Positions 9,246 through 57,250 of a stretch of 64,000 nt of DNA are shown here, in pieces. Each line of letters begins with the position of its first letter. Position 1 is the stretch's first letter. A program made the translations under genes and the position numbers. This DNA comes from an uncultured bacterium (lineage in GTDB: Bacteria > Sysuimicrobiota > Sysuimicrobiia > Sysuimicrobiales > Sysuimicrobiaceae). Below the pieces are notes generated by a model. That model made no database searches and was not told where the DNA came from. It was given only the letters and a program-made list of their open reading frames with translations. The stretch lies in assembly GCA_938028835.1 (NCBI GenBank), contig CALIMJ010000006.1, positions 145,710-209,709 of the forward strand. Reading direction: 5' to 3'.

Positions 9246-9357
9246 GCTCTCACCCCCGCTTGGGGGGGGTTCGACACCCGTGGGCCTTCGCCTTCGCGAA
9301 GGCGGGAGGGAGGACCCGGGACAGCCCTGAACTGAACCGGGGAAGGAGGGCTGGGCA

Positions 9358-10308
9358 GTGCAGGAACTGGTTCAGCTGGCAGAAGGGTGCGGGTACCTGC
9401 CTGGTGGGGTCCAGGCGGGCGTGCTGTGGGCCCCGGACGGCCGTGCGGTGGCGGTGGACACGGGAGGAGACCGGGAGGCGGGCCGCAACCTGCTCCGGGC
9501 GGTGCAGGCACGGGGGCTGCGGCTGGCGGCGGTGGTGAACACTCACTCCCACGCGGACCACTACGGCGGCAACGACTACCTGTTGCGGCAGGTGCCACAC
9601 CTGGAGGTGTGGGCGCCGGTCTTCGAGGAGGCGGTGCTGCGCAACCCCTACCTGGAGCCCTTCTACCTCTACGGCGCGCGTCCGCCCGAGGCGCTCCAGA
9701 ACAAGTGGCTCATGGCCAGGCCCTCCGCGGTCCACCACGTGTACCCGACCGAGGACGGCGAGCTCCAGGTGGCCGGTCTCGTGCTGCGGGTACACCGGGC
9801 AGACGGGCACGCCACCCGCCAGGCGGCGGTGGGCTTCGGGCCCGTGTGCTACGCCGCGGACAGCTTCTTCGGCCCGGAGGTGCTGGAGAAGTACGAGATC
9901 CCCTTCACCCACGACGTGGCGGGTCAGTTGGACACCCTCCAACGCCTGCGCGGCTGGCCGTACGAGTGGTTCGTACCGGGCCACGGGGCGCCCGTCCCGC
10001 GTCCGGACCTTCCCGCGGTGCTGGACGCCAACGTCCGGGCGGTCCGGCAGGCCACAGAACGGGTGCGCCGGGCGGTTGGGTCCGGCGCGACCTCGGACGA
10101 GGTGGTCCACCGGGTGGCCGCACAGCTCCGCGCGCCGCCCACCAACCCGTCCACCTACTTCCTGCTGCGCGCCACGGTGATGGCCCACCTGACCTACCTG
10201 TTGGAGGCAGGAGAGCTGAACTGGGCCCTGGACAGGGGCGCGCTGCGCTGGCTTCCCGCGGCGGATTCGCCCACCCGCGCAACCGCGGGCGACAGCCCCG
10301 CCCGCTAG
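9358..10308 (+). CDS. MBL-fold metallo-hydrolase
   Basis: The metallo-beta-lactamase motif 'NTHSHADHYGG' and downstream His/Asp ligands are present. GTG start. Confidence 0.8.
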   Translation: MQELVQLAEGCGYLPGGVQAGVLWAPDGRAVAVDTGGDREAGRNLLRAVQARGLRLAAVVNTHSHADHYGGNDYLLRQVPHLEVWAPVFEEAVLRNPYLEPFYLYGARPPEALQNKWLMARPSAVHHVYPTEDGELQVAGLVLRVHRADGHATRQAAVGFGPVCYAADSFFGPEVLEKYEIPFTHDVAGQLDTLQRLRGWPYEWFVPGHGAPVPRPDLPAVLDANVRAVRQATERVRRAVGSGATSDEVVHRVAAQLRAPPTNPSTYFLLRATVMAHLTYLLEAGELNWALDRGALRWLPAADSPTRATAGDSPAR

Positions 10309-10312
10309 CCCG

Positions 10313-10348
10313 TCTTTGACAGCGGGGGCGCGGCGTGATACGCTCGGC
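10313..10348 (+). promoter_or_regulatory. Candidate sigma-A-type promoter of cspA (TTGACA-N17-TACGCT)
   Basis: 'tTTGACAgcgggggcgcggcgtgaTACGCT' lies about 60 nt upstream of the cspA ATG. The same hexamer pair recurs upstream of amt. Confidence 0.4.
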
Positions 10349-10409
10349 CGGAGCCCTCGCCCGGGCGGGAAGCTCAAAAATCTACGGCAAGGCCGAAAGG
10401 AGCAAGGGA

Positions 10410-10610
10410 ATGGCAGTCGGCACGGTCAAGTGGTTCAATGCGGAGAAGGGCTACGGCTTCATCTCCGTAGACGGCGGCAAGGATGTGTTCGTCCACTACA
10501 CCGCCATCAGCATGGACGGCTACCGCACCCTCCAGGAGGGTCAGCGGGTGCAGTTCGACATCGTGGACGGCCGGAAGGGTCCGCAGGCGGCGAACGTCAA
10601 GCCGCTGTAG
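10410..10610 (+). CDS. cspA: Cold-shock protein (CspA family)
   Basis: '[33 protein letters not shown]...' contains the RNP1/RNP2 motifs of a cold-shock domain. RBS 'aaaggagcaaggg'. About 100 nt of leader, typical of csp genes. Confidence 0.92.
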
Positions 10611-10625
10611 GCCCGACGGATTCCG

Positions 10626-10666
10626 AGGTGCGCGGGGGCCCCGGACCGGGGCCCCCGCCTTCTCCG
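10626..10666 (+). terminator. Rho-independent terminator after cspA
   Basis: A GC-rich perfect hairpin 'gcgggggccccgg-acc-ggggcccccgc' is followed by 'cTTcTcc'. Confidence 0.6.
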
Positions 10667-10701
10667 GCGCGCAGGGAACGGCGTTCTGCCGCGCAGCCCT
10701 C

Positions 10702-10965
10702 ATGAGCCCGGTGGCTGAGCTCGTCAACGACGCCTTCTACCTCTACGGCCTCGTCCTCCTCGCACGGGTGCTCTCCAGCTGGATCCCCGGACTGGACCCA
10801 CGGACACCCGCGGTGCGGCTGCTCGTCAGCCTTACGGAACCCGTGCTGGCCCCCCTCCGTCGCGCGCTCCCCCCGGTCGGCGGGCTGGACCTTTCGCCCG
10901 TGGTGGCCTTCCTCCTGCTGGAGGTCGTCCGGCGGCTGACAGTCACCTTCCTGGCTGGCCTGTAG
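10702..10965 (+). CDS. yggT: YggT family membrane protein
   Basis: 87 aa reading 'LYGLVLLARVLSSWIP...PVLAPLRRALPPVGGLDLSPVVAFLLLEVV', the YggT/Ycf19 signature. Confidence 0.75.
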   Translation: MSPVAELVNDAFYLYGLVLLARVLSSWIPGLDPRTPAVRLLVSLTEPVLAPLRRALPPVGGLDLSPVVAFLLLEVVRRLTVTFLAGL

Positions 10966-11002
10966 CTTCCACGCGGGGACGCGCCCGGTTCGCTTCCCTC
11001 GC

Positions 11003-11897
11003 TTACAGTAACAGCCACAGGATGGCGCTCACGGTGGCGAAGCTGACCAGGGTGGTGGTGAATACCGCGCTGGCCACGAACCGGGGGTCGCAGTCAAACT
11101 CCGACGCGAACAGGAAGGTGTTCACCGCCGCCGGCATGGCGGCCACCAGCACGAACACCTGCCGGGCCACGGCCTCCAGGCCCAGCAGGGATGCGATCCC
11201 TACCGCCAGAAGCGGCGAGGCCCCTAGCCGCAGCGCGCCCGCGGCCACCAGGTCCCCGGAAGCCTGTACGCCGCCGCCCTGCGCCAGCTGGATTCCCAGG
11301 GTCACCACCAGCAGGGGGATGGCTCCTGAAGCCAGGATGGCCACCGTGCGGTCCAGCCACTCGGGGACCTTCCAGCCCGTAGCCACCACCCCCAGGGCCA
11401 GCACCACCGCGTAGACCAGGGGCAGGCGCAGCATGTCCGCCACCGCGCGCCTCAGACCGCCCCTGCTGGCCCAGGCGGCGGTGACCCCGGCGATGAAGTT
11501 CCCCAAGGTGGCGTTCACCACGAACACCAGGGTGGCGGCCTGGAAGCCCGGCTGCCCGAAGGCGAACAGGGACACCGGCAGTCCGTAGTTTCCCGCGTTG
11601 TAGTGGAAGGTGGGCAGCACAAAGGCAGCCCGCCGGGCACCCCGCAGGCCCAGCACTGCCGAGACCGCCAGGCCGAGCACCACCATGGCCACGAGGTGGG
11701 CCACGCACGCGGCCAGCAGACGGGGTGCGGTACCGGAGGTGAGCGGCGAGCGCGTGAGGGACTGGAACACCAGGGCCGGCGCGAACAGGTACATGGAGAC
11801 GGGCGCCAGGGAGGAGACCTCCACCGGCCGGTAGCGCCCCAGCAGGTAACCGGTGAGCACCAGCAGGAGCACAGGGCCGACGACGTTCAGCAGCACG
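11003..11897 (-). CDS. AEC family transporter (auxin-efflux-carrier/malate-permease-like)
   Basis: About 298 aa, ten hydrophobic segments, N-terminus 'LLNVVGPVLLLVLTGYLLGR'. The 486-aa ORF N-extension is treated as spurious; GTG start near 11897. Confidence 0.7.
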
Positions 11898-12033
11898 GCC
11901 GCCGCACCCTGAGCCCCGCATCCCGCACGTCCCCCCGCTGCCGTGCCCCAAGCACGGCCACGCCACCCAGGCGGTCCCGGGCGGGGTCTGGGGTTTTTCC
12001 GTTGGGTCGGCCGGCCACGCTCCGCGGGTCCGG

Positions 12034-12504
12034 CTACGGGCGGGTCCGCCCTGAAGCGGCCCTGCGCTTGCCGCGCGGCCGCGTCACAGGCGCGGCCGCC
12101 TTGGGAAGCCGTTCCTCCTCCCACGTGACGATGCTGTGGAAGTACACCCGGTCTCCCTCGTCCAGGCCCCGGGTCACTTCGGTGATGTGGACGTTCTTGG
12201 CCCCGAACTCTCCGAGGGCGTACTCCACCGCAGCCTCCGGCTTCGCGTCCTCGCCGCAGGTGTAGATATCCAGGGCCACGTAGCCCGTCTCCGGCCACGT
12301 GTGCACGGACAGGTGGGACTCCGAGATGACCACCACGCCGCTCACACCCACGGGGGAAAACCGGTGGAAGGAGATGGCCCAGATCTGCACGCCGGCTACC
12401 TCCGCGGCCCGGGTGAGGATCTGCTCCACCCGTTCCACCTTGCTGATGACCTCCGGGTCGCACCCCGAGGCTTCCACGATGTAGTGGTGTCCCAGCGTGT
12501 CCAT
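12034..12504 (-). CDS. speH: S-adenosylmethionine decarboxylase proenzyme (SpeH, pyruvoyl type)
   Basis: 'MDTLGHHYIVEASGCD...VVISESHLSVHTWPE...DIYTCG' includes the ES-S self-cleavage site typical of Bacillus-type SpeH. Confidence 0.88.
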   Translation of the reverse strand: MDTLGHHYIVEASGCDPEVISKVERVEQILTRAAEVAGVQIWAISFHRFSPVGVSGVVVISESHLSVHTWPETGYVALDIYTCGEDAKPEAAVEYALGEFGAKNVHITEVTRGLDEGDRVYFHSIVTWEEERLPKAAAPVTRPRGKRRAASGRTRP

Positions 12505-12764
12505 CGGCGCCCTCCGTGTCGCGGTCTCAACCCCCAAACGCACACGTCCCCGGGCGCCGCGGCCGCCGCGCCCAGGGACGCTTCGCTTTGATCAGCACCC
12601 ATGCTAGGGACTGTGGGGCCCGGGGTCAAGAGAGCGCCGGAACGTTGGCGCGACGACGCGGCGAGCTCCAGCGCGCAGCCGACGGCCAGGCGTACGGAAG
12701 CCACGGGGTCGCGCCCAAAGAAGCCGGTCAGCAGGTCGTGACACCGGCCGCGTACAATGCGGTT

Positions 12765-13715
12765 GTGGCTGGGGACCGATACGTCCTCGCCGCGACGGCC
12801 GTGGCTGTCCTCGTCGGCTGCGCGGTGACCCTGCGCACCGGCCCGGTGGTCCTTTCGGGGATCTACGTGGCCGACGCGGCAGGGAACTCCGTCAGCGTGT
12901 ACCCGCTGGACGCGTCCGGGGACGCACCCCCCGCGCGCTTCATCGCCGGGCCGTTCTCCCGGCTGCAGACGCCCGTCAGCCTGGTGCTGGACTCCTCCGA
13001 CCACCTGTACGTGGCCAGCGTGTCCAGGAACCGCATCACCGTGTACGGTCCCGGTGCGGTGGGGAATGCCGGTCCGGTGCGGGTGGTGGAGGGACCCGAC
13101 ACCCTCCTCTCAGGTCCGTCCGGCGTTACCCTGGACGCCTTCGGCCGTCTGTACGTGGCGAACGCCGCACCGTCCCGGCTCACCGTGTACCCCGCGGGCG
13201 CGAACGGCAACGTCCGTCCCGTGCAGGTGGTGGAAGGAGGGCGGACCCTGCTGGCGGCGCCGCGCGGGATCGCCCTGGCGGGTGGGGAGCTGTTCGTGGC
13301 CAACTCCTCGGCCAACTCCACCCTGGTGTTCGACGCCTCGGCCTCCGGGGACGTCCCGCCCGTGCGGCAACTGTCAGGGGCTCTCACGGGGCTGTTCGAG
13401 CCGGCCGCGGTGGCCGTGGACACCTTCGGCTTCCTCTACGTGGCCAACGCGGCGGGAAACTCGGTGACCGTGTACCGGTCGACTGCATCCGGGAACGTCC
13501 CGCCGGAAAGGCGCCTCGCCGGCCCCGCCACCCGCCTTTCCACGCCTCGGGGCCTGGTGGTGGATCCCGCCGGCCTGCTGGTGGTGGCCAACGCGGGAGG
13601 TGACTCGGTCACCATCTACGCTCCCGCCGCCTCCGGCGATACCCCTCCGCTCCGTACCCTCTCGGGACCCCGGACGCAGCTCCAGTTGCCCTGGGGCGTG
13701 GCGGTGCGGCCGTGA
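12765..13715 (+). CDS. NHL-repeat (beta-propeller) lipoprotein
   Basis: N-terminal lipobox 'AVAVLVGC', then six repeats of the form 'LxxPxGVAxDxxGxLYVANxxxNSVTVY'. Confidence 0.7.
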   Translation: MAGDRYVLAATAVAVLVGCAVTLRTGPVVLSGIYVADAAGNSVSVYPLDASGDAPPARFIAGPFSRLQTPVSLVLDSSDHLYVASVSRNRITVYGPGAVGNAGPVRVVEGPDTLLSGPSGVTLDAFGRLYVANAAPSRLTVYPAGANGNVRPVQVVEGGRTLLAAPRGIALAGGELFVANSSANSTLVFDASASGDVPPVRQLSGALTGLFEPAAVAVDTFGFLYVANAAGNSVTVYRSTASGNVPPERRLAGPATRLSTPRGLVVDPAGLLVVANAGGDSVTIYAPAASGDTPPLRTLSGPRTQLQLPWGVAVRP

Positions 13716-13719
13716 GGCG

Positions 13720-14172
13720 TCAGCGGACCAGCCACCGGAAACCGGCCACCGCGCCCGTGCTCACCGCCGTCACCAAAACTCCCGCCCCCACCACGCCCAG
13801 CGCCACCGCGCCCCAGGCGCGCAGCTTCGGCACCCCCAGCAGCCAGCCCAGCAGGGTCCCCGCGTAGGCTCCGGTGCCGGGCAGCGGCACCGCCACGAAC
13901 AGCGCCAAGCCCACCACCCCGTAACCGCGCACGTAGCCCTCGCCGCGGCGCCGGACCCGCTCCACCTGCCGGCCCACCCAGGGCCACCGGGAAAGCCACC
14001 GCGCGTAGCACCAGTCCAAAAAGGCCCATCCCACCGGCACCACCAGGAGGTTGGCCGCGGTGCACACCGCGAAGCTCACCACGGGCGGGTGCCCAACCGC
14101 CACGGCCACTGGAATGGCGCCCCGCAGCTCCACCCACGGGACCAGGCTCAGGGCGGCCGCCCACCAAAGGTC
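13720..14172 (-). CDS. Small multidrug export-like membrane protein (COG2426-like)
   Basis: About 150 aa, four TM segments, reading 'LSLVPWVELRGAIPVAV...VPLPGTGAYAGTLLGWLLGV'. The ORF track N-extension is spurious. Confidence 0.5.
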   Translation of the reverse strand, partial: DLWWAAALSLVPWVELRGAIPVAVAVGHPPVVSFAVCTAANLLVVPVGWAFLDWCYARWLSRWPWVGRQVERVRRRGEGYVRGYGVVGLALFVAVPLPGTGAYAGTLLGWLLGVPKLRAWGAVALGVVGAGVLVTAVSTGAVAGFRWLVR

Positions 14173-14174
14173 GC

Positions 14175-15131
14175 TCACCGGGCGCTCCGGATGCGGGCGC
14201 GCCGCGACTGCCGGCGCTGCTCCGCCTGTTCCCACCGCCGTCGCTCGGCCTCGGTCTGCGGCTGGTACGGAGGGAGGGGCCGCGGCCGGCCCGCGAAATC
14301 CGTGTGCACCAGGGTGACGAAGGTGCTGCAGGTATGGCGGACCTCCCCGGACAGCGGGTCCTCGCTGAGCACGCGCACACCCACCTCCATGGAACTGGAT
14401 CCCACGTGGTTGAGGGCAGCGCGGTAGTGGACGATCTGCCCCACCCGGATGGGGTTCACGAAGTCCAGGGCGTCCACGGAGGCGGTGACCACCGGCCCCC
14501 GCGCGTAGCGCATGGCCACCATGGACGCCACCTCGTCCAGGTCCATCACCAGACGGCCCGCGAACATCAGGTTGCCCACGATGGCGTCCTCCGGGAACAC
14601 CACCCGGCACGTCTCCAGGTGGTGGCGGGGCGGGGGTTCTTCGGCTTCCGGCCGGCGCCGCTGCAACAAGCGGTTCAGACGTCGCTCCCGCCGCTGCCGG
14701 GCCTCGGCCTGCAGCCGCTCCTCCTCCGGGTCTGTGGGAACCACCTGCGCGCCCGTGGGCCGCGGCCGGCCCTCGGCGTCCACGGCGACGAATCCCAGAA
14801 ACGCCCGCGTAGCCAGGCGCCGGAGCCCCGTGGCGGGATCCTCCGCGTGGACCTCCACGTCCACCTCCATGGAGGAGCGGCCCGCGAGGGGGACCGTGGC
14901 CGCCAGCTGCACGATCTGCCCCGCCAGCACGGGGTGGAGGAAGTCCAGCTCGTCCATGGAGCCCAGCACCACCAACCCCCGCGCCAGCCGGGAAGCCGCG
15001 AGGGTCCCTACCGTGACGATCCAGCTCATCATGCGGCCGCCGTAGAGCGAGCCGCGGGCGTTGGTGTGCTCGGGGAACACCATCTCCACGGTCTCCGCGC
15101 GGGTCTGCGCCACGCTCAGGGAGCGGATCAT
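14175..15131 (-). CDS. Acyl-CoA thioesterase with tandem hotdog domains
   Basis: Two repeats of 'VFPExxNxxGxLxGGRxMxxxDxxAxxxAxR' with DxxD motifs (BFIT/Acot7-like). Confidence 0.75.
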   Translation of the reverse strand: MIRSLSVAQTRAETVEMVFPEHTNARGSLYGGRMMSWIVTVGTLAASRLARGLVVLGSMDELDFLHPVLAGQIVQLAATVPLAGRSSMEVDVEVHAEDPATGLRRLATRAFLGFVAVDAEGRPRPTGAQVVPTDPEEERLQAEARQRRERRLNRLLQRRRPEAEEPPPRHHLETCRVVFPEDAIVGNLMFAGRLVMDLDEVASMVAMRYARGPVVTASVDALDFVNPIRVGQIVHYRAALNHVGSSSMEVGVRVLSEDPLSGEVRHTCSTFVTLVHTDFAGRPRPLPPYQPQTEAERRRWEQAEQRRQSRRARIRSAR

Positions 15132-15138
15132 GGAGCCT

Positions 15139-16929
15139 TCAGAAGACGTCCCCGCTCCGCACGGAGCCCGCCTCCACCCGGGCCCACGCCCGGTACCAGG
15201 AGGTGATGGGAAGCCTGCGATCCCGTCCGAAGGCCTTGGGGGTGATCTTCACGCCCGGCGGCGCCTGCCGCCGCTTGTACTCGCTGCGGTCCACCATCCG
15301 CACCACTCGGGCCACCACCTCTGGGTCGAATCCCGCGCGGACGATGTCCTCGGGAGGGGTGTCCTGCTCCACGTACATCTCGAGGATGGGGTCCAGCACC
15401 TCGTAGGGCGGAAGGGTCTCCTGGTCGGTCTGGCCGGGCCGCAGCTCCGCCGTGGGCGGCCGGGTGAGTACGCCCTCCGGAATCACGGGGCCCTTCCCGT
15501 TGCGCCACCGGGCGAGAGCGTACACCAGCGTCTTCGGCACGTCCTTCAGTACCGCGAACCCGCCCGCCATGTCCCCGTACAGGGTCGCGTAGCCCACGCT
15601 GAGCTCGCTCTTGTTCCCGGTGGTGAGCACGATCCCGCCCAGCTTGTTGGTCAGGGCCATCAGGTAGTTGCCCCGGATCCGCGCCTGGAGGTTCTCCTCG
15701 GTGACGTCAGACGGCAGCCCCTGGAACGCAGACCGCAGGGCCTCCAGGTACGCTTCGAAGGGCTCCCGGATGGGGAGGGTCAGCAGGCGGATCCCCAGAT
15801 TGCGGGCCAGCTCCTCCGCGTAGCGGACGCTCTCCGAAGAGGTGAAAGGGGACGGCATGGACACCCCCACCACCGCCTCAGGGCCCAGGGCGTCCGTGGC
15901 CACCGTGGCCACCAGGGAGGAGTCCACCCCACCCGACAGCCCCACGAACACCTGGCGGAAGCCGTTCTTGCGCACGTAGTCCCGTGTGCCCACCACCAGG
16001 GCCCGGTACACCTCTTCCAGGTCTGGAAGGGGTTCCGCCACCACCGGGGCCACCGGCAGGGAGGGTTCCCGCAGCGGCACATCTACCACCACCGTAGGGC
16101 ACAGGGAGATGTCCCCTACGGGGAACCGCTCCGACTCGTCCACGCCGGTTCGCCGCGCCCGGTGGCGCCGCGCCGCGGCCACATCTAGGTCGCACACCAC
16201 CAGCGCCTCTTCGAACTGCGGCGCCCGCGCCAGCACCCGACCGTTCTGGTCCAGCACCACGCTGCCCCCGTCAAACACTAGCTCGTCCTGACCGCCCACG
16301 AGGTTCACGTAGCACAGCAGGACCCCGCAGTCGCGGGCGCGGGTCCGTAGCATCTCCTCCCGCTCCCGCCACTTGCCCCGGTGGTAGGGGGAGCCGTTGA
16401 GGTTGAGCACCACCAGGGCTCCGGCCCGCGCCTGCACCGCGCAGGGCCCGTCGGGGAACCAGATGTCCTCGCAGATGTTCACCGCTACGGGCACGTCCCC
16501 CAGAAGGAACAGGGGCGCCTGCTGGCCGGGCGCGAAGTACCGCTTCTCGTCGAACACTCCATAGTTGGGCAGCAGTCGCTTGTGGTATACGCCCTGCACC
16601 CGACCCCCCGCGCACACCGCCGCCCCGTTGTACAGGTAGTTGGCCCGATCCGCAAACCCCACGACGACCACCACGTCGGTGGCGTGGCGGGCCACCTCCT
16701 GCACCGCAGCCAGGTTGGCCTCCACGAAGTCCGGCTTCAGGAGCAGGTCCTCGGGCGGGTAACCGGTGATCGCCAGCTCCGGGAACAGCACCACGTGGGC
16801 CTCCCGCTGGCGCGCCTGGTGGATCTGCTCCGCGATGCGGCGGACGTTCCCCTCCAGGTCCCCCACCACAGGGTTGATCTGCGCCAAAGCCACCCGCAGC
16901 CGCCGCATCCCGATAGCAGTATCCCGCAC
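15139..16929 (-). CDS. nadE: Glutamine-dependent NAD+ synthetase
   Basis: N-terminal CN-hydrolase domain ('LRVALAQINPVVGDL...') and C-terminal NAD synthetase domain with PP-loop 'GLSGGVDSS'. Confidence 0.9.
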   Translation of the reverse strand: MRDTAIGMRRLRVALAQINPVVGDLEGNVRRIAEQIHQARQREAHVVLFPELAITGYPPEDLLLKPDFVEANLAAVQEVARHATDVVVVVGFADRANYLYNGAAVCAGGRVQGVYHKRLLPNYGVFDEKRYFAPGQQAPLFLLGDVPVAVNICEDIWFPDGPCAVQARAGALVVLNLNGSPYHRGKWREREEMLRTRARDCGVLLCYVNLVGGQDELVFDGGSVVLDQNGRVLARAPQFEEALVVCDLDVAAARRHRARRTGVDESERFPVGDISLCPTVVVDVPLREPSLPVAPVVAEPLPDLEEVYRALVVGTRDYVRKNGFRQVFVGLSGGVDSSLVATVATDALGPEAVVGVSMPSPFTSSESVRYAEELARNLGIRLLTLPIREPFEAYLEALRSAFQGLPSDVTEENLQARIRGNYLMALTNKLGGIVLTTGNKSELSVGYATLYGDMAGGFAVLKDVPKTLVYALARWRNGKGPVIPEGVLTRPPTAELRPGQTDQETLPPYEVLDPILEMYVEQDTPPEDIVRAGFDPEVVARVVRMVDRSEYKRRQAPPGVKITPKAFGRDRRLPITSWYRAWARVEAGSVRSGDVF

Positions 16930-16951
16930 CGTGCAGCCTGGGAAAAGCGGC

Positions 16952-18322
16952 TCAGGCCAGCCCGCGCACCTCGTGCAGGAAACGGATGACGGCCTCCACC
17001 CCGCCCCACAGCAGCGGGAGGTTCACCTTCTCGTTGGGCGCGTGCAGGTTGTCGTCGGGAAGCCCGAACCCGGTGACCACCACCGGCTGCCCCAGGACCC
17101 GGCTGAACAGGTCCACCACGGGGACCGACCCGCCCGCGCGCACGAACCGGGCGGGCGCCCCGTAGGCGGCCGACCACGCGCGGGCCGCGGCCTGCACCGC
17201 GGGTTGTTCGGGCGAGACGACCCAGGGGCGCCCCGTGTGCAGCTTGCGGACCGCCACCTCGTAAGCCGGGTGGGCGTTGCGCAGCAGGTACCGCTCGAAG
17301 GCCCGGTACACCCGGTCCGGGTTCTGGTCCGGCACCAGCCGCATGCTCACCTTGGCCACGCACCGGGCGGGTAGCACCGTTTTGGCTCCGGGCCCGCTGA
17401 ACCCCCCGCCCATTCCGTGCACCTCCAGAGTAGGCCGCGCCCACAGCCGCTCCAGCAGGGAGTACCCTTCCTCCCCCACCGTGCCGCGCGCCCCGATGCT
17501 GCGGGCGAAGTCCTCCTCCCGGATGGGCAGGTCCCTCCAGGCGGCCCGCTCCGCCTCCGACGGCTCCCGCACCGGCCGGTAGAACCCCGGGATGCGGATC
17601 CTCCCGCGCCGGTCCCGCAGGGAGGCCAGCAGCCGCACCATCTCGTGGAAGGGGTTGGGTGCGGCTCCCCCGAAAGTCCCGGAGTGCAGGTCGCTAGAGG
17701 GCCCACGGATTTCGACCTCCGTGTACAGGATCCCCCGCAGCCCCACCGTGATGGACGGCACACCGGGCAGCACGAAGCCCGAGTCCATGACCAGGGCGCA
17801 GTCCGCCCGCAGGCGACGCCGGTGCCGGGGCACGTAGCGGGCGATCTCCAGCCCGCTGCTCTCCTCTTCCCCCTCCACCAGGACCTTGACGTTCACCGGC
17901 AGCCCGTCGGTGGCCAGCAGGCTTTCCAACGCGGTGAGGGTGGCGAACACGTGTCCTTTGTCGTCGGACGCCCCCCGCGCGTACAGGTTGTCCCCCCGCA
18001 CGGTGGGATCGAAGGGCGGGCTTTCCCACAGCTCCAGCGGGTCGGCGGGCTGCACGTCGTAGTGGCCATAGACCAGCACCGTGGGCGCGCCCGCTAGCCC
18101 CACCCACTCCCCGTACACCAGGGGATGCTGGCGCTGGGAGGGCACCACCTCCACCCGGCGCAGGCCCACCCGGCGCATGCGGTCGGCCAGCCAGCGGGCG
18201 GCGCGCTCGCAGTCCGGCCCGTGCTCCGGCAGCGTGCTCACGCTGGGGATGGCCAGCCACTCCTTGAGCTCCTCCAAAAAGCCCGCGCGGCGCTCTCTGG
18301 CGTAGGCGATGGCGCGTTCCAT
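16952..18322 (-). CDS. M20-family dipeptidase
   Basis: 456 aa with 'VLVYGHYDVQPADP', 'RGASDDKG' and 'LVEGEEESG', the M20 metal and catalytic motifs. Confidence 0.85.
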   Translation of the reverse strand: MERAIAYARERRAGFLEELKEWLAIPSVSTLPEHGPDCERAARWLADRMRRVGLRRVEVVPSQRQHPLVYGEWVGLAGAPTVLVYGHYDVQPADPLELWESPPFDPTVRGDNLYARGASDDKGHVFATLTALESLLATDGLPVNVKVLVEGEEESSGLEIARYVPRHRRRLRADCALVMDSGFVLPGVPSITVGLRGILYTEVEIRGPSSDLHSGTFGGAAPNPFHEMVRLLASLRDRRGRIRIPGFYRPVREPSEAERAAWRDLPIREEDFARSIGARGTVGEEGYSLLERLWARPTLEVHGMGGGFSGPGAKTVLPARCVAKVSMRLVPDQNPDRVYRAFERYLLRNAHPAYEVAVRKLHTGRPWVVSPEQPAVQAAARAWSAAYGAPARFVRAGGSVPVVDLFSRVLGQPVVVTGFGLPDDNLHAPNEKVNLPLLWGGVEAVIRFLHEVRGLA

Positions 18323-30088: not shown

Positions 30089-31291
30089 GTGGGCGCTGTG
30101 ACGTGGGAAGCGTGGCTCGGCGTAGCGGCCTTCGTGATCCTGTTCAGCCTGTGGTCGCTGTTACCCAGCCGGTTCCTGAAACGCACCACGACCAGCGAAA
30201 AACAGACGAGGACGGTTCCGTCGACGCCCCTCCAGCCAGCCGCGGCACCGGCGCGGGCCCGGCCCAGCCAGGCCGCGGCGGTGGAGCTCGGGCTGGTCCG
30301 CAACCCCGCGTTCGGGCACGGTGCGGACCGCAGTCTGCCCCGGTACTTCTACGTGGTGCACAACGGCGACAGCGAGGCGCGCCTGCCCGTGTACTGGGAG
30401 CCGCGGCCCACTTCCCGGGACCCCCTGGTGCGGGAGGTCTATCGGGTGCGGGTGGCCGGCCGCACCCTGGAAGCGGGTAACCTGCAGGTGCTGGGCGCCC
30501 AGCTCCGGGACGCGCTGGGCAGCCTTCTCGCCACCGGCCGTCCGCCCCGCTTCTGGCTGGTGAACGGCACTTCCGCGGTCCCCGTGTACCGCGAGGGGGA
30601 ATCCTACGTGGCCCTCACGGACGGCCCCAGGCTGTGGGGAAAGGACTTGGGGGAACTCGTGGCCCGGTACGCCCATTACCTGGCGTCCTGCAACGGCGGA
30701 CAGTGCGCACCGGTCACCGCGGCCCTGTTCTCGCCCGCGGACCTGGACGTGCACTGGCCGGAGCTGGTGTGGGCGGGTCCCGGTGTGTGGATCCCGGTCT
30801 TCGCAGTGGACGGCGGATTGGCCGCCTTCGGGCCGCGGGATCGAACCTGGTTGGTGCCGGCCGGGCCCAGGGCGGTGCTGGATCTGTGGGAACGCGTGGG
30901 GAACGACCTAGTGGCCCGGGGCCTCCTGCAGCACCCCGCCGCCCTGTGGGGCAGTGACGTCAGCGAATCCACCCGATCGGCGCTGCTGGCCTCGAGCCAG
31001 CCCACGGGGCTTGTACTGCGCTTCGTCCGCTTCCACCCGTCGGGTGCCGCCCGCGTAACGTTGCCGGTCCTGCGCCTGGGGAGTCGGGTGTTCGCCACCT
31101 GCGGGGAGCTGTCCTGCCTGCACGTGGCGGCTGACCCCGCGACCCTGCGGGAGTACCTGTCCGCGCACCTGGCGCAAGCGGGGGCGGTGGCGGGGCTTCA
31201 GGACGTGGCGCTGGACGAGGACGGCACCTCTTCCCGCCAGACCGCCGACGCGGGGGGCCTACGCCTGGGCGTCGCTTCGTCCCACGCGTGA
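30089..31291 (+). CDS. Hypothetical membrane-anchored protein (flotillin-associated?)
   Basis: Single N-terminal TM helix, then a 370-aa soluble region with no recognisable motif. It starts 16 nt after amt and ends 5 nt before the flotillin gene. Confidence 0.55.
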   Translation: MGAVTWEAWLGVAAFVILFSLWSLLPSRFLKRTTTSEKQTRTVPSTPLQPAAAPARARPSQAAAVELGLVRNPAFGHGADRSLPRYFYVVHNGDSEARLPVYWEPRPTSRDPLVREVYRVRVAGRTLEAGNLQVLGAQLRDALGSLLATGRPPRFWLVNGTSAVPVYREGESYVALTDGPRLWGKDLGELVARYAHYLASCNGGQCAPVTAALFSPADLDVHWPELVWAGPGVWIPVFAVDGGLAAFGPRDRTWLVPAGPRAVLDLWERVGNDLVARGLLQHPAALWGSDVSESTRSALLASSQPTGLVLRFVRFHPSGAARVTLPVLRLGSRVFATCGELSCLHVAADPATLREYLSAHLAQAGAVAGLQDVALDEDGTSSRQTADAGGLRLGVASSHA

Positions 31292-48522: not shown

Positions 48523-49158
48523 CTAGGGCTGCTGGCCCGCCCCCTCGCCCATCTCCAGCTCCCCCAGCTGAATCAGGCTTTCCAGGTCCTCCACGGCGTC
48601 GGGGAGCCAGCGGCGGAACAGCTCCCGGGTAGCCTGGCGCGCTTCTTCTGAAGCGCCGCCCAGCATCCTGGCCACATCCGCCAGGTCCTGGGTGCGGCCC
48701 GCGTGGACCTTCATCAGCACGAGGTAGGGCAGGGCCAGCACGGGGAGGCCCTGCGGGTCCGAGCGGACCTGCGCCAGCGCGTCCCGGATCCACGGTGCCT
48801 CGGATGCGATCACGTCCACGGGCACACCTTCTGGGCTGGTGTAGCTGCGGCCGCCCACGGCCAGCGCCGGCCCCGGACGGAAGCCGGCTTCTACCAGGCG
48901 CCGGTGGACCTCCCCCGCGTCCTCCCACGCAACCACCACGTCCAGGTCCGCGGTCGCCCGCTCGGGCATGTACAACCGGCTGCCCACCGCCCCCACTACC
49001 GCCCAGCGGATCCCCTCGAGGATCCGGGTCAGGTCAGGCCAGCGTCTCAAGGCCGTGCGCCTCCTGAGGACCTCCAAGGCCGTGCCGACCCCCGGCCTCG
49101 CCCGGCGGAGGGCCAGTTCGAGAAACCTGCGACGGCGTTCCGCCACGGACGGCGCCAC
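48523..49158 (-). CDS. Hypothetical nucleotidyltransferase-like protein
   Basis: 211 aa with 'RLYMPERATADLDVVVAWED', a Pol-beta-type NTase-like Dx[D/E] pattern. Family unassigned. Confidence 0.45.
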   Translation of the reverse strand: MAPSVAERRRRFLELALRRARPGVGTALEVLRRRTALRRWPDLTRILEGIRWAVVGAVGSRLYMPERATADLDVVVAWEDAGEVHRRLVEAGFRPGPALAVGGRSYTSPEGVPVDVIASEAPWIRDALAQVRSDPQGLPVLALPYLVLMKVHAGRTQDLADVARMLGGASEEARQATRELFRRWLPDAVEDLESLIQLGELEMGEGAGQQP

Positions 49159-50398: not shown

Positions 50399-51136
50399 CT
50401 AGCAGGGCGGCAGCTCGATCTGAATGGGCGCGTTGAAGTCCCCGTAGTCCATGGTCAACATCGGCTTGCCACCGTCCAGAATCTCCCACCGCCGGGGCAG
50501 GCCGTCCGCGCCCACCCACAGGCGCTGCTCGCTGGCCGGCTGTCCCGGCATCCGCCCCACCATCCGGTAAACCCGCACGGGCGCACCGCCGAGAGAGGCG
50601 TCAGGGAGCCGGCCCACCTCGATCTCCAACTCCGCCGGCGCCTGCGCACCGCCACTTGCCTCCAGGGTCTGGCACCGCCACCCGGTGAGGCGCTGCGCCA
50701 CCGCTTGCGTCATCGCGTCCATGGCCGCGCGCATCACGAAGCCGGTGGCGAAGCCGATCGGGTCCAGGAAGGCGCTGAGCAGGACACCGGGGCCGATGGA
50801 GGGCTGCGGGGAGGTTGGCGCGCCGGCCTTACTCAACTGGCGGGAGGCCATCTGGCGCCCGACGATGATGGACTCCGCGGTGTAGTGGGGCAGTTCCACC
50901 ACCACGCGCCGCCGATCCGGATTCATCACCTCGGTGAGCAGGGTCACCTGGATCGGGCTTTCCGGGGCCACCGCCGAGCGGATCCGGTAGCTGTGGAGGG
51001 CCTGGAGGCGAGCTTGGGCGGCCTCCACCTCCTCCCAGGCCCGGGCGTCCCCCTTCACGACCATACCCGCAGGTGCTGCCCACCCCGCCGCGGCTACCGA
51101 AACCAACGCCAGCACCCCCGCCGCTACCCTGTACAT
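50399..51136 (-). CDS. Hypothetical secreted protein
   Basis: N-terminal signal 'MYRVAAGVLALVSVAAAGWAAPA', about 245 aa, no motif recognised. Possibly LolA-like. Confidence 0.45.
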   Translation of the reverse strand: MYRVAAGVLALVSVAAAGWAAPAGMVVKGDARAWEEVEAAQARLQALHSYRIRSAVAPESPIQVTLLTEVMNPDRRRVVVELPHYTAESIIVGRQMASRQLSKAGAPTSPQPSIGPGVLLSAFLDPIGFATGFVMRAAMDAMTQAVAQRLTGWRCQTLEASGGAQAPAELEIEVGRLPDASLGGAPVRVYRMVGRMPGQPASEQRLWVGADGLPRRWEILDGGKPMLTMDYGDFNAPIQIELPPC

Positions 51137-51290
51137 GGTGCCCCCGGGCTGGAGATTCGGATCCTTCCGGGCAGAGACAGGTGACGCAGGCGCCACGGGT
51201 ACCCGCCTGGAGGTCTCCTAGCCGTGTTTACCACCCGGCGGCAGCCCGGTAAAGGGGAAAAAGCGGGTCCGGCGCGGAACTCCAACGGAG

Positions 51291-53799: not shown

Positions 53800-54350
53800 T
53801 CCCGCCTATCGGTCCCTCGCCCTGCAGGGAGGGGTCCAGGTCGGCAGCCATGGCCTCGCGGATGCGCCGCGCCAGGACCCTGCCGATCCCGGGGACCCGC
53901 GCGAGCTCTTCCACACTCGCGGTGGCGAGGCGTTCCACGCTGCCGCAGTGACGGAGCAGGACACCCGCGCGCTGAGGCCCTACCTGAGGCAGGGCCGCCA
54001 GCCGTCCGGTCCCTCCGTGAACACCGTGGGGATGCCGTAGGTCACGGCCAGCGTGGCGAGGGCGCCCCGCACGAAGTTGGGATGGACCTCCCGCACGCCG
54101 TACAGGCGCCGCCCTTCCACCAGGTACAGGGGACGCTCAAACGCCTGCCGGAGGCGCTCGGCTTGCAGGGCGAACCGCTTGCGCACCAGGGCTGCCACGA
54201 AGTCCGCCGCGGTCTTGCGCTCCACCCCCACCCGCGGGCTCAGCACGTAGTCGCCCACGGGCAGACCGGTTTCCAGCACCTCCGCGCCGAGGTTCCGGAG
54301 CCGGTCCGCCCGGACCGAGCTTCCCTCCAGTCCACGAGGATCTTCACCAC
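53793..54350 (-). pseudogene. XPF/ERCC4-type nuclease with C-terminal helix-hairpin-helix, interrupted by two frameshifts
   Basis: Hand translation of the minus strand gives three frames in succession: 'VVKILVDWREARSG' (start of the ERCC4 domain), 'LRNLGAEVLETGLPVGDYVLSPRVGVERKTAADFVAALV...GIPTVFTEGPDG' (ERK catalytic motif), and 'LAALPQVGPQRAGVLLRHCGSVERLATASVEELARVPGIGRVLARRIREAM' (HhH2). The frame breaks are near 54290 and 53995. Confidence 0.6.
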
Positions 54351-54483
54351 GCCGCCGGGTTTCGGCCTCCCCGGTGCGTCCTCCTTTCCGCGCACCGCGG
54401 CGCTACCCTAAATGCAGGGGGGACGGCCCCCGCCGGGATTTCCCTGGCGGGCAGCCCGACGCGTCGACACCCGGAGGACAGCC

Positions 54484-56043
54484 GTGCAGCTGGTGGTGTT
54501 GGACGGAGCCCGGACCATCGGGGGGACGAAGATCTACCTGCGGGAGGGACGGGCCGGGTTCCTGCTGGACTTCGGCCTGAACTACCAGCGCTGGGGCCAG
54601 TACTTTGACGAGTTCCTCAGACCCCGCACGGCCCGCGGCCTGTTCGACCTGTGGCAACTGGGACTGGTTCCACAGGCGGCCGGGATCTACCGCGAGGACC
54701 TGCTGGCGCCAGACTTCTCCGCGCCCCTGGGAGCGCCTGCCCTGGAGATCCAGGCGGCGTTCCTGAGCCACGCGCACCTGGACCACTGCGGCTTGGTGGG
54801 CGTGCTGCGATGCGATCTCCCCCTCGTGGCCTCGCGGCTGACCCTGGCCATCCTCAAGGCCCTCCAGGATACCGGGGCCGCGGAGTTCTACGGAGAGCTC
54901 GCGTACTGCCGACTGCGCAGGCCCAACCGGTCCGGGGAGCTGGAGGCGGACCGCAGCAGCGCTGGGTGCGTGGGCCGCCCCGCCCATGCTGCGGACGGTG
55001 CGCCGTCCCCGCAGCTGCAGCGCCTGTGGACCACCCTGCCCAGGCAGCGGCGGGCCCTGGACCCGCGGCCGGTGGCTCCTCCCGCGCCTGCTTACGGGGG
55101 AGTCCGCGTGCGCGTCTACCCCGTGGACCACTCCGTGCCGGGAGCCGTGGCCTTCGCCTTCGAGTGCTCCGAGGGGTTGGTGGTGTACACGGGAGACCTG
55201 CGGCACCACGGCCGCCACGCGCACCTGGTGGACACCTTCATCGCGGACCTCCAGCGCGAGCAGGTGCACGCCCTAGTGGTGGAGGGCACCCGCCTCACCC
55301 GGGAGACGCACGACCACGTCACGGAAGCCCAGGTGCTGGACAACGCCCGGACGGTGGTGGCCGCACGGCCCGGCCGGCTCGTGGTGGCGGACTTCGGACC
55401 CCGCCAGGTGGAGCGGCTGCAGACCTTCCTGCAGGCGGCGCACGAGACCGACCGCCAGCTGGTGGTCCTGCCCAAGGACGGGTACCTGCTGGAGGCCCTG
55501 GCCGCCGCGGACCCAGGCTTTGAGGAGATCCTCCGGCATCCCGCGCTGGCGTTTTTCGACCGACCGCGCCTGGTCCGCGACACCTGGTTGCGGGAGTTCA
55601 CCAACCGGCACCGCCACCGCCTGGTAGACGCAGAGGCCATCCGCCGGGACCCCGGCGCATACCTGCTGGCCTTCAGCTTCTTCGACCTCGTGGACCTCCT
55701 GGACGTGGATCCGCAGGACGGCGTGTACGTGTACTCGTCCTCCGAGGCGTACGGGGAGGACAACCGGGTGGACTTCTGGCGGCTGTGGAACTGGCTGCTG
55801 CGGCTGCGGATGGAGCCCCACGGCTTTCGGTGGGAGGGCGCCGACGAGCGGGGACGGCCCACCTTCGGAGGCGGCTTCCACGCCAGCGGGCACATCCACC
55901 CGGACGACCTACGGGACCTGATCCGGTCCGTCCGCCCCCGCTACGTGGTCCCGGTACACACGGAGAACCCGGCGTGGTTCGGGGAGAACCTCCGGGGTGA
56001 GCCCATCCGGGTGGTGCTGCTGGAGAACGGGGAAGTCCTCTGA
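54484..56043 (+). CDS. beta-CASP family metallo-beta-lactamase nuclease (RNase J / SNM1-like)
   Basis: MBL motif 'SHAHLDHCG', 'TGDLRHHG', beta-CASP motif B 'HASGH' and motif C 'VPVHTE'. A Pro/Arg-rich low-complexity insert lies at about 54900-55100. Divergent from the ERCC4 gene with 133 nt between the starts. Confidence 0.72.
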   Translation: MQLVVLDGARTIGGTKIYLREGRAGFLLDFGLNYQRWGQYFDEFLRPRTARGLFDLWQLGLVPQAAGIYREDLLAPDFSAPLGAPALEIQAAFLSHAHLDHCGLVGVLRCDLPLVASRLTLAILKALQDTGAAEFYGELAYCRLRRPNRSGELEADRSSAGCVGRPAHAADGAPSPQLQRLWTTLPRQRRALDPRPVAPPAPAYGGVRVRVYPVDHSVPGAVAFAFECSEGLVVYTGDLRHHGRHAHLVDTFIADLQREQVHALVVEGTRLTRETHDHVTEAQVLDNARTVVAARPGRLVVADFGPRQVERLQTFLQAAHETDRQLVVLPKDGYLLEALAAADPGFEEILRHPALAFFDRPRLVRDTWLREFTNRHRHRLVDAEAIRRDPGAYLLAFSFFDLVDLLDVDPQDGVYVYSSSEAYGEDNRVDFWRLWNWLLRLRMEPHGFRWEGADERGRPTFGGGFHASGHIHPDDLRDLIRSVRPRYVVPVHTENPAWFGENLRGEPIRVVLLENGEVL

Positions 56044-56056
56044 GAGGCGGGTCGCC

Positions 56057-57184
56057 TCACACCCCTGCCTTCCGCTCCCGCACCGCCACCCCCGCGGCCC
56101 GGGCCAGCTCCCGGTGGATGCGGGCGGTGCGTTCCACCTGCCCCTTGGCGGGGAACCGCTCGTAGAACCCGTCCGCCCGGAACATCCGCCGCAGGTCCGC
56201 CCACGGCTGCAGCCGCTCCTCCCAACGGCGGACGCGCCCTTCCTCCGGCTCGGCGTCCGTGGCCGCCAGGTCCGCGCACACCCGGATCATGGCCTTGAGG
56301 GTGACCGGACGCGTCACCATGTAGTTGGGATTGCCCCAGGCGTCCTGCCACACCCGCTCCGCGGCCCGGAGGAAGTCCCGCAGGACCCCGTAGTAGTCCT
56401 CGGGCCGCGTCCCGGATCGCTCGATCTCGGACCAGGTAGCCCGGGCCCAGCGGTGCAGCTCGTTGAACAGCTCCGCCTGCAGGATCCACTTCTCCTGGCG
56501 GCTCCGTCCGCCGGGCCGGTTGATCTTGTACCGCAGGGGGCTGGAGGGCTCCTCGTACAGCATGCGGGCCACGCGGGCCGCGAACTTCTTGTCGGGGGTA
56601 GCCTGCCACCAGGTCACGCGCTCGTACAGCTCCACCAGGTGGCTCTTGTTGATCCGGGTGGGCGTGGCGTTGATGATCACGAACATCTCCGCGGCGAAGT
56701 CCTCGCTGCGGCCGTCGAAGATCACGCACGGCACCTGGATGGTCCGGGCGTCCTCCGGCCGCTCGCGCCGGTAGAACTCCAGAGCCGCCAGGCGGTGCTG
56801 CCCGTCGATGATAAGGTACTTGCCCTCCGGCTCCCGCAGGTCCCCCACGCTCTCGTAGCGGTCCACGGGCTCGAAGCGCAGCGGCTCCGGGGTAAACAGC
56901 AGCACCGTGCCCGGAATGGGCGGCTGCTCGCCCGCGGTCTCGTAGAAGTTCAGGATCTCCCGGACCTTGCGCCTCGACAGCTGCCGCTGGAACGCCCGGT
57001 CGCTGCGCTCGATGCGGGCGATGAACTGGGCGATCTCGTCCCCCTCCGGCGCCGGCTCCGGCGCGATGGTCTCCCCCTCCCCGTAGAACCGGCTCATGAA
57101 GCGCACCTTCGCCAGCAGGTCCTCCGCGCGGTACGCGACGAAGTAAAACACCCCGTCCTTCTGCCGGATCTGTGTGGCCAGCAC
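56057..57184 (-). CDS. DGQHR-domain protein (DndB-like, ParB/Srx-fold)
   Basis: 375 aa containing 'YLIIDGQHRLAALEFY', the DGQHR signature shared with DndB and DUF262-type ParB-like nucleases. GTG start with a GGGAGG RBS. Confidence 0.7.
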   Translation of the reverse strand: MLATQIRQKDGVFYFVAYRAEDLLAKVRFMSRFYGEGETIAPEPAPEGDEIAQFIARIERSDRAFQRQLSRRKVREILNFYETAGEQPPIPGTVLLFTPEPLRFEPVDRYESVGDLREPEGKYLIIDGQHRLAALEFYRRERPEDARTIQVPCVIFDGRSEDFAAEMFVIINATPTRINKSHLVELYERVTWWQATPDKKFAARVARMLYEEPSSPLRYKINRPGGRSRQEKWILQAELFNELHRWARATWSEIERSGTRPEDYYGVLRDFLRAAERVWQDAWGNPNYMVTRPVTLKAMIRVCADLAATDAEPEEGRVRRWEERLQPWADLRRMFRADGFYERFPAKGQVERTARIHRELARAAGVAVRERKAGV

Positions 57185-57215
57185 AGCGACACCTCCCGGG
57201 TCTTCCGCCTGCGAG

Positions 57216-57250
57216 TATTGTAGCGAACACGTGTACGCACCGCTACAGCC
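57216..57250 (-). promoter_or_regulatory. Nested palindrome / candidate operator and -10 (TACAAT) upstream of the DGQHR gene
   Basis: Plus strand 'TGTAGCG-aACACGTGTacgcac-CGCTACA': a 7-bp inverted repeat flanks an 8-bp perfect palindrome ACACGTGT. On the coding (minus) strand 'gcTACAATactcgcagg' precedes the GGGAGG RBS. Confidence 0.4.

Follow-up and report, generated by a model that had tools for sequence, protein, structure and literature searches.

The question raised by the locus described here is what role a DGQHR protein plays when it is encoded alone. The protein lies in a 64,000-nucleotide stretch of DNA (the window) from an uncultured bacterium of the Sysuimicrobiaceae (assembly GCA_938028835.1, contig CALIMJ010000006.1), in which positions 56057–57184 of the minus strand encode a stand-alone, DndB/DpdB-like DGQHR protein of 375 residues with a ParB/sulfiredoxin (Srx) fold. 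To our knowledge, the DGQHR proteins characterised so far (DndB, DpdB, and phosphorothioate [PT]-associated protein 1) all serve, as subunits or regulators, in DNA-modification defence systems made up of several genes, and they turn over together with these systems. An earlier note, made from the letters of the window alone, had proposed for the present protein either a defence or DNA-maintenance role or the state of a remnant regulator of a lost dnd-type cluster. Our analysis revealed a native, core-genome gene under unusually strong purifying selection, which is inherited mostly vertically, occurs in more than ten bacterial phyla, evolves more slowly than SMC, and behaves as a constrained resident, unlike a defence gene or a decaying remnant; it thus resembles a gene for a housekeeping-type nucleotide switch. 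The comparisons below suggest that the protein belongs to a separate orthologous clade, whose members are stand-alone DGQHR proteins paralogous to DndB and DpdB, and that it may act as a homodimeric DNA-binding switch gated by nucleoside triphosphates (NTPs), an explanation that we favour with about even confidence.

Analysis of the reading frame confirmed that the gene described in the earlier note is real. It starts with GTG at 57184 and ends with the TGA stop codon at 56057–56059, and its MLATQ N-terminus is the same start as that of the DGQHR orthologues. The window has a GC content of 72% and several long alternative-frame open reading frames (ORFs) are present; the third-position GC content (GC3) of 0.91 identifies the frame at 56057–57184 as the true coding frame among them. 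The signature noticed earlier, IIDGQHRLAALEFY, occupies residues 125–138 of the protein. The profile TIGR03187 (DGQHR) matched residues 3–306 with 130.1 bits (E = 1.3e-37), against a curated cut-off of 58.85 bits, and the match covers profile positions 1–275 of 276. Together with the literal D-G-Q-H-R motif, this score and coverage place the protein in the DGQHR domain family. The Pfam profile PF14072 (DndB) gave a marginal match (31.0 versus a gathering threshold [GA] of 29.1), so that the DGQHR and DndB profiles, two of those proposed in the note, recognise the protein, the second only just. The assignment to the DGQHR/ParB-fold proteins was thereby upheld, while the accompanying mention of the DUF262 type was slightly imprecise: the DUF262/GmrS signature is DGQQR, and PF03235, the profile for GmrSD/SspE, scored 19.5 bits versus a GA of 33.2, with no DUF1524 domain. 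A search of 5.8 billion proteins returned more than 5,000 homologues, which shows that the DGQHR observation is not due to chance. Such proteins already carry the database label "DGQHR domain-containing protein", and an exact-sequence look-up of the window protein returned no record.

The closest relatives of the protein are strongly conserved across phyla. The best 120 matches among the 5.8 billion proteins share 70–92% identity over 96–100% of the length, and, among 185,579 GTDB species each represented by one genome, at least 419 carry the gene. The best 80 matches span Sysuimicrobiota, Bacteroidia, Thermodesulfobacteriota, Nitrospirota, Myxococcota, Gemmatimonadota, Verrucomicrobiota, and Beta- and Gammaproteobacteria; Acidobacteriota are also among the orthologue carriers, and Pyrinomonas methylaliphatogenes is a named carrier. 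Within these best 80, the window protein is 66–75% identical to orthologues from other phyla, and the lowest pairwise identity in the orthologue set is 62%, with a median of 69%. In its own phylum, identity reaches 96% with Candidatus Tepidifontimicrobium thermophilum (Sysuimicrobiota) and 99% with the orthologue at locus L001. An alignment of 44 sequences contains about 150 invariant positions, with a mean column identity of 67%. When 15 billion proteins were clustered at 50% identity, the family appeared as essentially one full-length representative, with a few branches at 46–52% and a gap to paralogues at about 31%.

Average-linkage clustering of 81 orthologues recovered the clusters of Beta- and Gammaproteobacteria, Myxococcota, Nitrospirota, Verrucomicrobiota, and Sysuimicrobiota, with within-phylum identities of 76–87% for most phyla and 71% within Gemmatimonadota, and the tree largely follows taxonomy. 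The GC content of the gene is correlated with that of its flanks (r = 0.78, 68 loci), and the ratio of non-synonymous to synonymous substitution rates (dN/dS) against close relatives is about 0.07–0.15. Comparison of the same genome pairs revealed that the DGQHR gene is the best-conserved or joint-best-conserved gene of its neighbourhood. Between L004 and the window, the DGQHR protein is 90% identical, compared with 68% for Smc, 77% for MBL, 74% for GT4, 79% for ADH, 86% for M48, and 90% for the 5'-nucleotidase; the corresponding values are 91% (DGQHR), 52% (Smc), and 77% (MBL) for L003, and 92% (DGQHR), 67% (Smc), 74% (MBL), and 70% (GT4) for L007. The plasmid and phage collections contained no family member, only paralogues of 20–35% identity, and none was found among the 2.9 million viral contigs of IMG/VR. 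Two further observations concern individual members of the orthologue set. One metagenome-assembled genome (MAG; DASWIC01, SMAG_U2858) carries two DGQHR copies, L072 and L078, which are 95% identical and lie on separate contigs, either because the gene was recently duplicated or because the bin mixes strains. The record titles of L006, L028, L040, L052, and L063 (Clostridia, Rhodospirillaceae, Streptomycetaceae, Bacillota, and Gammaproteobacteria) conflict with the protein clustering, and those of L028, L040, and L063 also conflict with their Burkholderiales-type flanking synteny; mis-binning or mislabelling is the likely cause.

The gene is also solitary. All-against-all clustering of the ORFs within ±7 kb of the gene at 81 loci yielded no neighbour family that spans three or more phylum-level groups. 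The top neighbour clusters consist of alternative-frame ORFs over the DGQHR gene itself or of synteny confined to Burkholderiales, and the widest true neighbour family occurs at 27 of the 81 loci, 25 of them in Betaproteobacteria. Burkholderiales orthologues share a core synteny of ompR/envZ, RidA, tsaB, rimI, and uracil-DNA glycosylase (UDG). By Pfam annotation, the Pyrinomonas locus lies among ilv/met biosynthesis genes, the Nitrospira locus among insertion sequence elements, a gene for an ACT protein, and def, the locus on a 7-Mb contig among fatty-acid and thiamine genes, and that of a Bacteroidia MAG beside an aminotransferase gene and cas7/cas5 with a helicase gene. In the last case (L084, positions 9248–17116, KatS3mg025), the orthologue is followed by two unannotated genes and then by cas7 (DevR), cas5d, a large SNF2/DEAD helicase gene with an NOV_C domain, and a gene for an AlbA_2/Schlafen-like protein. 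A linkage to amino-acid metabolism was considered and rejected, as the pyridoxal phosphate-dependent enzymes that neighbour the gene at three loci belong to different, non-recurrent families. The sister clades (31–52% identity) are solitary as well, with greA, ETF, thyX, or anthranilate synthase genes as neighbours; the distant plasmid paralogues, by contrast, lie in dpdA-dpdB-dpdD/K/J clusters and in PT-restriction clusters. At the loci examined, the gene is monocistronic and never linked to dnd, dpd, ssp, or any other recurrent partner. The inspection of homologues for dnd, ssp, or restriction genes, which the note had recommended, accordingly turned against its suggestion: apart from the Cas-adjacent case, the contexts are core-metabolic, and the homologues appear essentially housekeeping and outside defence islands, though not as part of a conserved operon with smc.

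The contents of the window agree with this picture. About 38 of its proteins were scanned with Pfam, which identified CysRS, a P-type ATPase, aminopeptidases, Amt, GlnA, thiolase, TctAC, PrpF, IDH, MsrA, a methyltransferase, an M48 peptidase, ADH, 5'-nucleotidase, Smc with its hinge, GT4, and a MerR-type helix-turn-helix (HTH) protein; the stretches at about 2.2–5.2, 10.6–12.0, 19.7–22.0, 37.5–39.8, and 45–46 kb lay outside the scan. Among these proteins, none belongs to a dnd, dpd, ssp, or restriction-modification system, and the three products of dndCDE (the PAPS-reductase-like protein, DndD, and DndE) were found neither among them nor at the 81 orthologue loci. The earlier remark that dndCDE partners are missing therefore held for the scanned part of the window. 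Three ORFs with high GC3, at 30089–31291 (plus strand), 48523–49158 (minus strand), and 50399–51196 (minus strand), have no Pfam match, and the first of them lies directly upstream of a flotillin/SPFH gene.

Analysis of the protein indicated that its predicted nucleotide-site motifs are intact. The signature D127-G-Q-H-R131 (56792–56806, minus strand) is invariant in the 44 aligned orthologues, and so is the longer DGQHRLAAL (residues 127–135). DGQHR is regarded as the analogue of the phosphate-binding GxxRxxA motif of ParB and of DGQQR in DpdB and SspE (PMC10164549). F65-Q66-R67 (56984–56992, minus strand), invariant in 44 of 44 orthologues, aligns with YQR of DpdB and corresponds to the first conserved motif of the DGQHR/DUF262-type ParB-fold NTPases. 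A third block of strong conservation in the nucleotide-binding core, F168-VIINATPTRINKSH-182 (FVIIN.T.TRIN.SH; 56639–56681, minus strand), has 13 of its 15 residues invariant across the 44 sequences. Beyond the TIGR03187 match, which ends at residue 306, the C-terminal approximately 70 residues (307–375; 56060–56266, minus strand) form a family-specific helical extension that contains the almost invariant motif GFYERFPAKGQVER.

The AlphaFold2 model of the protein (predicted local distance difference test [pLDDT] score of 81, predicted template modelling [pTM] score of 0.74) has an alpha/beta core in its N-terminal part, and its C-terminal half is entirely helical, with pLDDT values mostly of 85–97 across residues 301–370. 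The nucleotide-binding core is structurally similar to solved ParB/Srx-fold proteins. Alignment of the family profile with genuine DpdB by hhalign gave a probability of 96% and 27% identity over 216 columns (residues 55–286). At the sequence level, neither the protein alone nor the family profile retrieved a relative from the PDB, and Foldseek of the model against the PDB returned only noise. The protein is basic (pI 9.1; family median 9.2). No nuclease motif was recognised in it, Pfam detected no HNH/DUF1524 domain, and nothing indicates nuclease activity.

The upstream region contains features that would suit expression of the gene from its own promoter. Reading of the sequence identified a Shine-Dalgarno element GGGAGG (57192–57197, minus strand) 7 nucleotides 5' of the GTG start and a putative −10 hexamer TACAAT (57217–57222, minus strand). 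The form cgcTA(c/g)AAT is kept in L001–L004 and L007, and Burkholderiales orthologues have the comparable gcTAGAAT. A consensus-based promoter/terminator scan of the region was uninformative and found no full −35/−10 pair, so TACAAT is treated here as a putative −10 box; no cis-regulatory RNA scored above the Rfam threshold there. Abutting the −10 box is a 16-bp near-palindrome, GCGTACACGTGTTCGC (57223–57238), a candidate operator that lies inside 7-bp inverted arms at 57219–57225 and 57241–57247. Its core is kept in L001, L002, L004, and L007, with diverging flanks, and an inverted arm at least as long as the observed one arose in 4 of 60 shuffles. The candidate operator would fit, weakly, with autoregulation by the DGQHR protein.

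Several extensions of this idea were rejected. When 7- and 8-mers were counted clade by clade, the words obtained were all GC-rich and no better than those of distal control regions, and thus no operator common across clades emerged. The palindrome resembles a Cheo box (GAAC-N4-GTAC), which would point to SOS/LexA regulation, but no consistent site emerged when the regions upstream of the 81 orthologues were scanned for Cheo, CTGT-N8-ACAG, and alpha-type boxes. A regulon within the window was likewise not supported: the sole other site (17943–17958, three mismatches) falls within the coding sequence of an M20 peptidase, and shuffled sequences would be expected to give nearly as many sites. In six Burkholderiales orthologues (L034, L047, L057, L060, L072, and L078), a GC-rich hairpin is found about 40–75 nucleotides upstream of the start, just downstream of gcTAGAAT; its stems vary yet stay complementary (for example GCCGCCCGC/GCGGGCGGC and GGCGGCCC/GGGCCGCC) and are followed by a GGTTTGC-like sequence, and the element may be a 5'-leader stem-loop.

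According to the explanation that we favour, the N-terminal ParB/Srx-fold core would bind nucleotide and be joined to the helical C-terminal domain, and NTP binding at the FQR/DGQHR pocket would alter the grip of the dimer on DNA. The outcome would be a regulatory or chromosome-associated housekeeping function, possibly together with autorepression via the palindrome beside the −10 box. A homodimeric, NTP-gated switch is proposed by analogy with the characterised paralogues: DndB, an ATP-modulated autorepressor that binds DNA; DpdB, a dimeric ATPase stimulated by DNA and predicted to encircle it; and a DndB-like protein that binds ATP and GTP. Among the earlier proposals, a DNA-maintenance role is possible. 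Several points weigh against the NTP-gated switch. DNA binding, dimerisation, and NTP hydrolysis are transferred from paralogues that share only about 27–30% core identity. The palindrome is limited to a genus-level clade and no upstream motif is common across clades, although a conserved autoregulator would be expected to keep a conserved operator; the enrichment of inverted repeats upstream of the gene is marginal (5.75 versus 5.12 bp). The patchy distribution of the family among species representatives is more in line with an accessory role than with an essential one, and the Bacteroidia orthologue beside cas7/cas5 and the helicase gene provides the sole defence-like neighbourhood seen. Another, rather doubtful, possibility is that the clade represents an ancient housekeeping-type NTP switch of the ParB/Srx fold, present in at least ten phyla and evolving more slowly than SMC, which would work by itself on the chromosome, for instance as a nucleoid-associated, NTP-gated clamp or as a global regulator, in a role unrelated to modification or defence.

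Other explanations were weighed against the same evidence. DpdB is the closest named family (60 versus 21 bits for DndB with PADLOC, 53 versus 18 with NCBIfam, and the hhalign probability given above) and is needed for DpdA activity (PMC10164549), from which one might suppose an accessory NTPase subunit of a nucleic-acid-modifying enzyme encoded elsewhere, its ATP hydrolysis driving a transglycosylase or modifier on DNA or RNA in a DpdB-like manner. The extreme, surface-wide conservation would suit such a conserved protein partner. This remains an unlikely account, as DpdB always adjoins dpdA while no recurrent partner emerged here, either within ±7 kb at the 81 loci or in the sister clades, and the protein has DGQHR instead of DGQQR and a score of 53 against a DpdB cut-off of 300. 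The possibility of a small-molecule- or protein-modifying ParB/Srx-fold enzyme that does not act on DNA, such as a free serine kinase/SbnI-like kinase or a sulfiredoxin-like repair enzyme, appears improbable in view of the full-length DGQHR family match, since the known members of this family work on DNA. Moreover, the neighbouring amino-acid genes come from different families and do not recur, there is no PDB sequence match, and the similarity is confined to the common core of 80–90 residues.

Superfamily relatives such as SspE, BrxU/GmrSD, Osa, and DndB act in conflict systems, and the Cas-adjacent orthologue would agree with an anti-phage or anti-plasmid effector encoded by a single gene, in which a ParB/Srx-fold enzyme would break down nucleotides or nick DNA in the way suggested for some conflict-associated ParB-fold proteins. 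We regard such an effector as quite unlikely. The other annotated loci are core-metabolic and the tree is congruent with taxonomy, the low dN/dS and a conservation above that of Smc are the opposite of typical defence-gene dynamics, no copy occurs on plasmids, phages, or in IMG/VR, PADLOC returned only weak paralogue matches, and HNH/DUF1524 is missing; the gene therefore lacks the general features of an anti-phage defence gene. Canonical ParB-CTP clamps recruit SMC, and the DGQHR gene follows smc on the same strand at a distance of 218 bp, an arrangement that might suggest a ParB-like condensin loader or regulator working with the adjacent SMC. The smc-DGQHR-MBL order, however, is found only in L001–L004 and L007 (at least 90% identity) and is missing from L005 and L006 of the same phylum and from all other phyla, and the gene is monocistronic with its own promoter-like region. 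Such a partnership is very unlikely; functional linkage to smc was rejected on the ground that the synteny is limited to near relatives, and the position "beside nucleases and smc" stressed in the earlier note carries no functional weight. As for a regulator left to decay after the loss of a dnd- or dpd-type cluster, the DGQHR domain without partners in the window would be in keeping with it, but the frame is intact, the motifs are invariant, dN/dS is well below 1, the gene is the best or joint-best conserved locally, it is solitary in every lineage examined, and its scores are far under the DndB and DpdB cut-offs. The remnant reading is effectively refuted. Two readings raised in the note, a remnant and a defence gene, thus find no support, because of the conservation, the taxonomy-following tree, the solitary loci, and the lack of mobile copies.

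The immediate flanks were described only in part correctly as smc and nucleases. The gene upstream encodes a canonical Smc of 1186 residues with SMC_N and hinge domains, in agreement with the earlier statement that it is full-length and not DndD. The two supposed nuclease genes call for a correction: one is broken and the product of the other, an MBL/beta-CASP protein, is only a weak RNase-J-like match. The MBL gene (54412–56043, plus strand) is convergent with the DGQHR gene, and the two stop codons lie 13 bp apart. Its product is 89% identical to that of L001 over only 460 of 543 residues, compared with 97–99% for its neighbours, and evolves much faster, which suggests a variable insertion region around residues 150–230. 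A sub-threshold Rfam match to the guanidine-II (mini-ykkC) riboswitch at 54388–54431 on the plus strand (23.9 versus 32 bits, E = 0.078) straddles the annotated start of this gene. Only its first hairpin (GGGGG-ACGG-CCCCC) looks canonical; the match is probably due to chance, and a GTG near 54484 is the more likely start of the MBL protein. The ERCC4-(HhH)2 XPF/Hef-like nuclease gene at 53800–54400 (minus strand) is interrupted, its N-terminal VVKILVDWREARSG, ERCC4 core (53980–54279), and helix-hairpin-helix (HhH) tail lying in three frames, and it lacks about 45 residues that the intact orthologue in L001 has. A pseudogene and an assembly error are the two explanations considered. The cysteine desulfurase gene, which starts at about 63569 (plus strand), has no link to the DGQHR gene, and its nearness is coincidental, as the note had itself assumed.

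The clade departs from the pattern of the known DGQHR proteins in that it has no partner, belongs to the core genome, and retains about 62–75% identity between phyla that otherwise share little. Constraint of this degree is normally a sign that the substrate or partner of a protein is universal. Should the protein prove to be an NTP-gated DNA switch that works autonomously, the repertoire of the ParB-CTPase fold, a currently growing field, would gain a new cellular role, and a hint to the origin of the DGQHR subunits of defence systems would be provided; if the protein were a housekeeping NTP switch, the DndB/DpdB family would gain a cellular, non-conflict ancestor or offshoot. The clade has so far escaped study because most of its carriers are uncultured lineages from soil, groundwater, and hot springs. 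Pyrinomonas methylaliphatogenes is a cultured species and offers an experimental way in. For annotation, a lone PF14072/DGQHR match should not be counted as evidence of phosphorothioation.

No stand-alone DGQHR clade of this kind is described in the literature that we searched, and comparison with the named systems sets the window protein apart from each of them. The CTPase clamps ParB, Noc, KorB, and PadC differ from it by their C-terminal domain, and it has no ParBc or HTH Pfam match, no parA partner, and no parS evidence. It differs from the DUF262/GmrS-type proteins (SspE, DndI, and BrxU/GmrSD) in falling below PF03235, in lacking DUF1524/HNH, in its DGQHR instead of DGQQR, and in not belonging to a defence locus. 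The score for PT-associated DGQHR protein 1 was 48.9 bits (TIGR04172; cut-off, 450), and none of the genes that adjoin a true TIGR04172 member (those for a PT restriction enzyme, an AAA ATPase, and PT-associated protein 4) is present here. DndB, an autorepressor whose binding sites on DNA are palindromes in its own promoter (PMC4507180), shares with the window protein the DGQHR signature and the narrow PF14072 match, and the own-promoter palindrome recalls the TACG-N10-CGTA operators of DndB. The differences are that the DndB equivalog profile TIGR03233 gave 18.4 bits against a cut-off of 328 and the PADLOC profile 21 bits, that the orthologue loci lack dndCDE, and that the operator-like palindrome is not kept across clades. 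DndB is reported to be modulated by ATP (Xia et al. 2019, as cited in PMC10164549). A DndB-like protein binds ATP and GTP (bioRxiv 10.1101/2025.10.10.680097). DpdB, a homodimeric, DNA-stimulated ATPase whose helical domains were modelled around a DNA-sized tunnel (PMC10164549), is similar in its ParB-fold N-terminal core followed by a helical C-terminal domain, in the equivalents of FQR/YQR and DGQ(H/Q)R, and in its length, which at 375 residues equals that of the window protein. The DpdB profile NF041060 gave 53.4 bits against a cut-off of 300, and PADLOC DpdB 60 bits. Genuine dpdB adjoins dpdA, whereas no orthologue locus examined shows this adjacency or places the gene beside any dpd gene; the window protein is instead chromosomal, vertically inherited, and far more conserved than DpdB, carries DGQHR in place of DGQQR, and has its own C-terminal extension.

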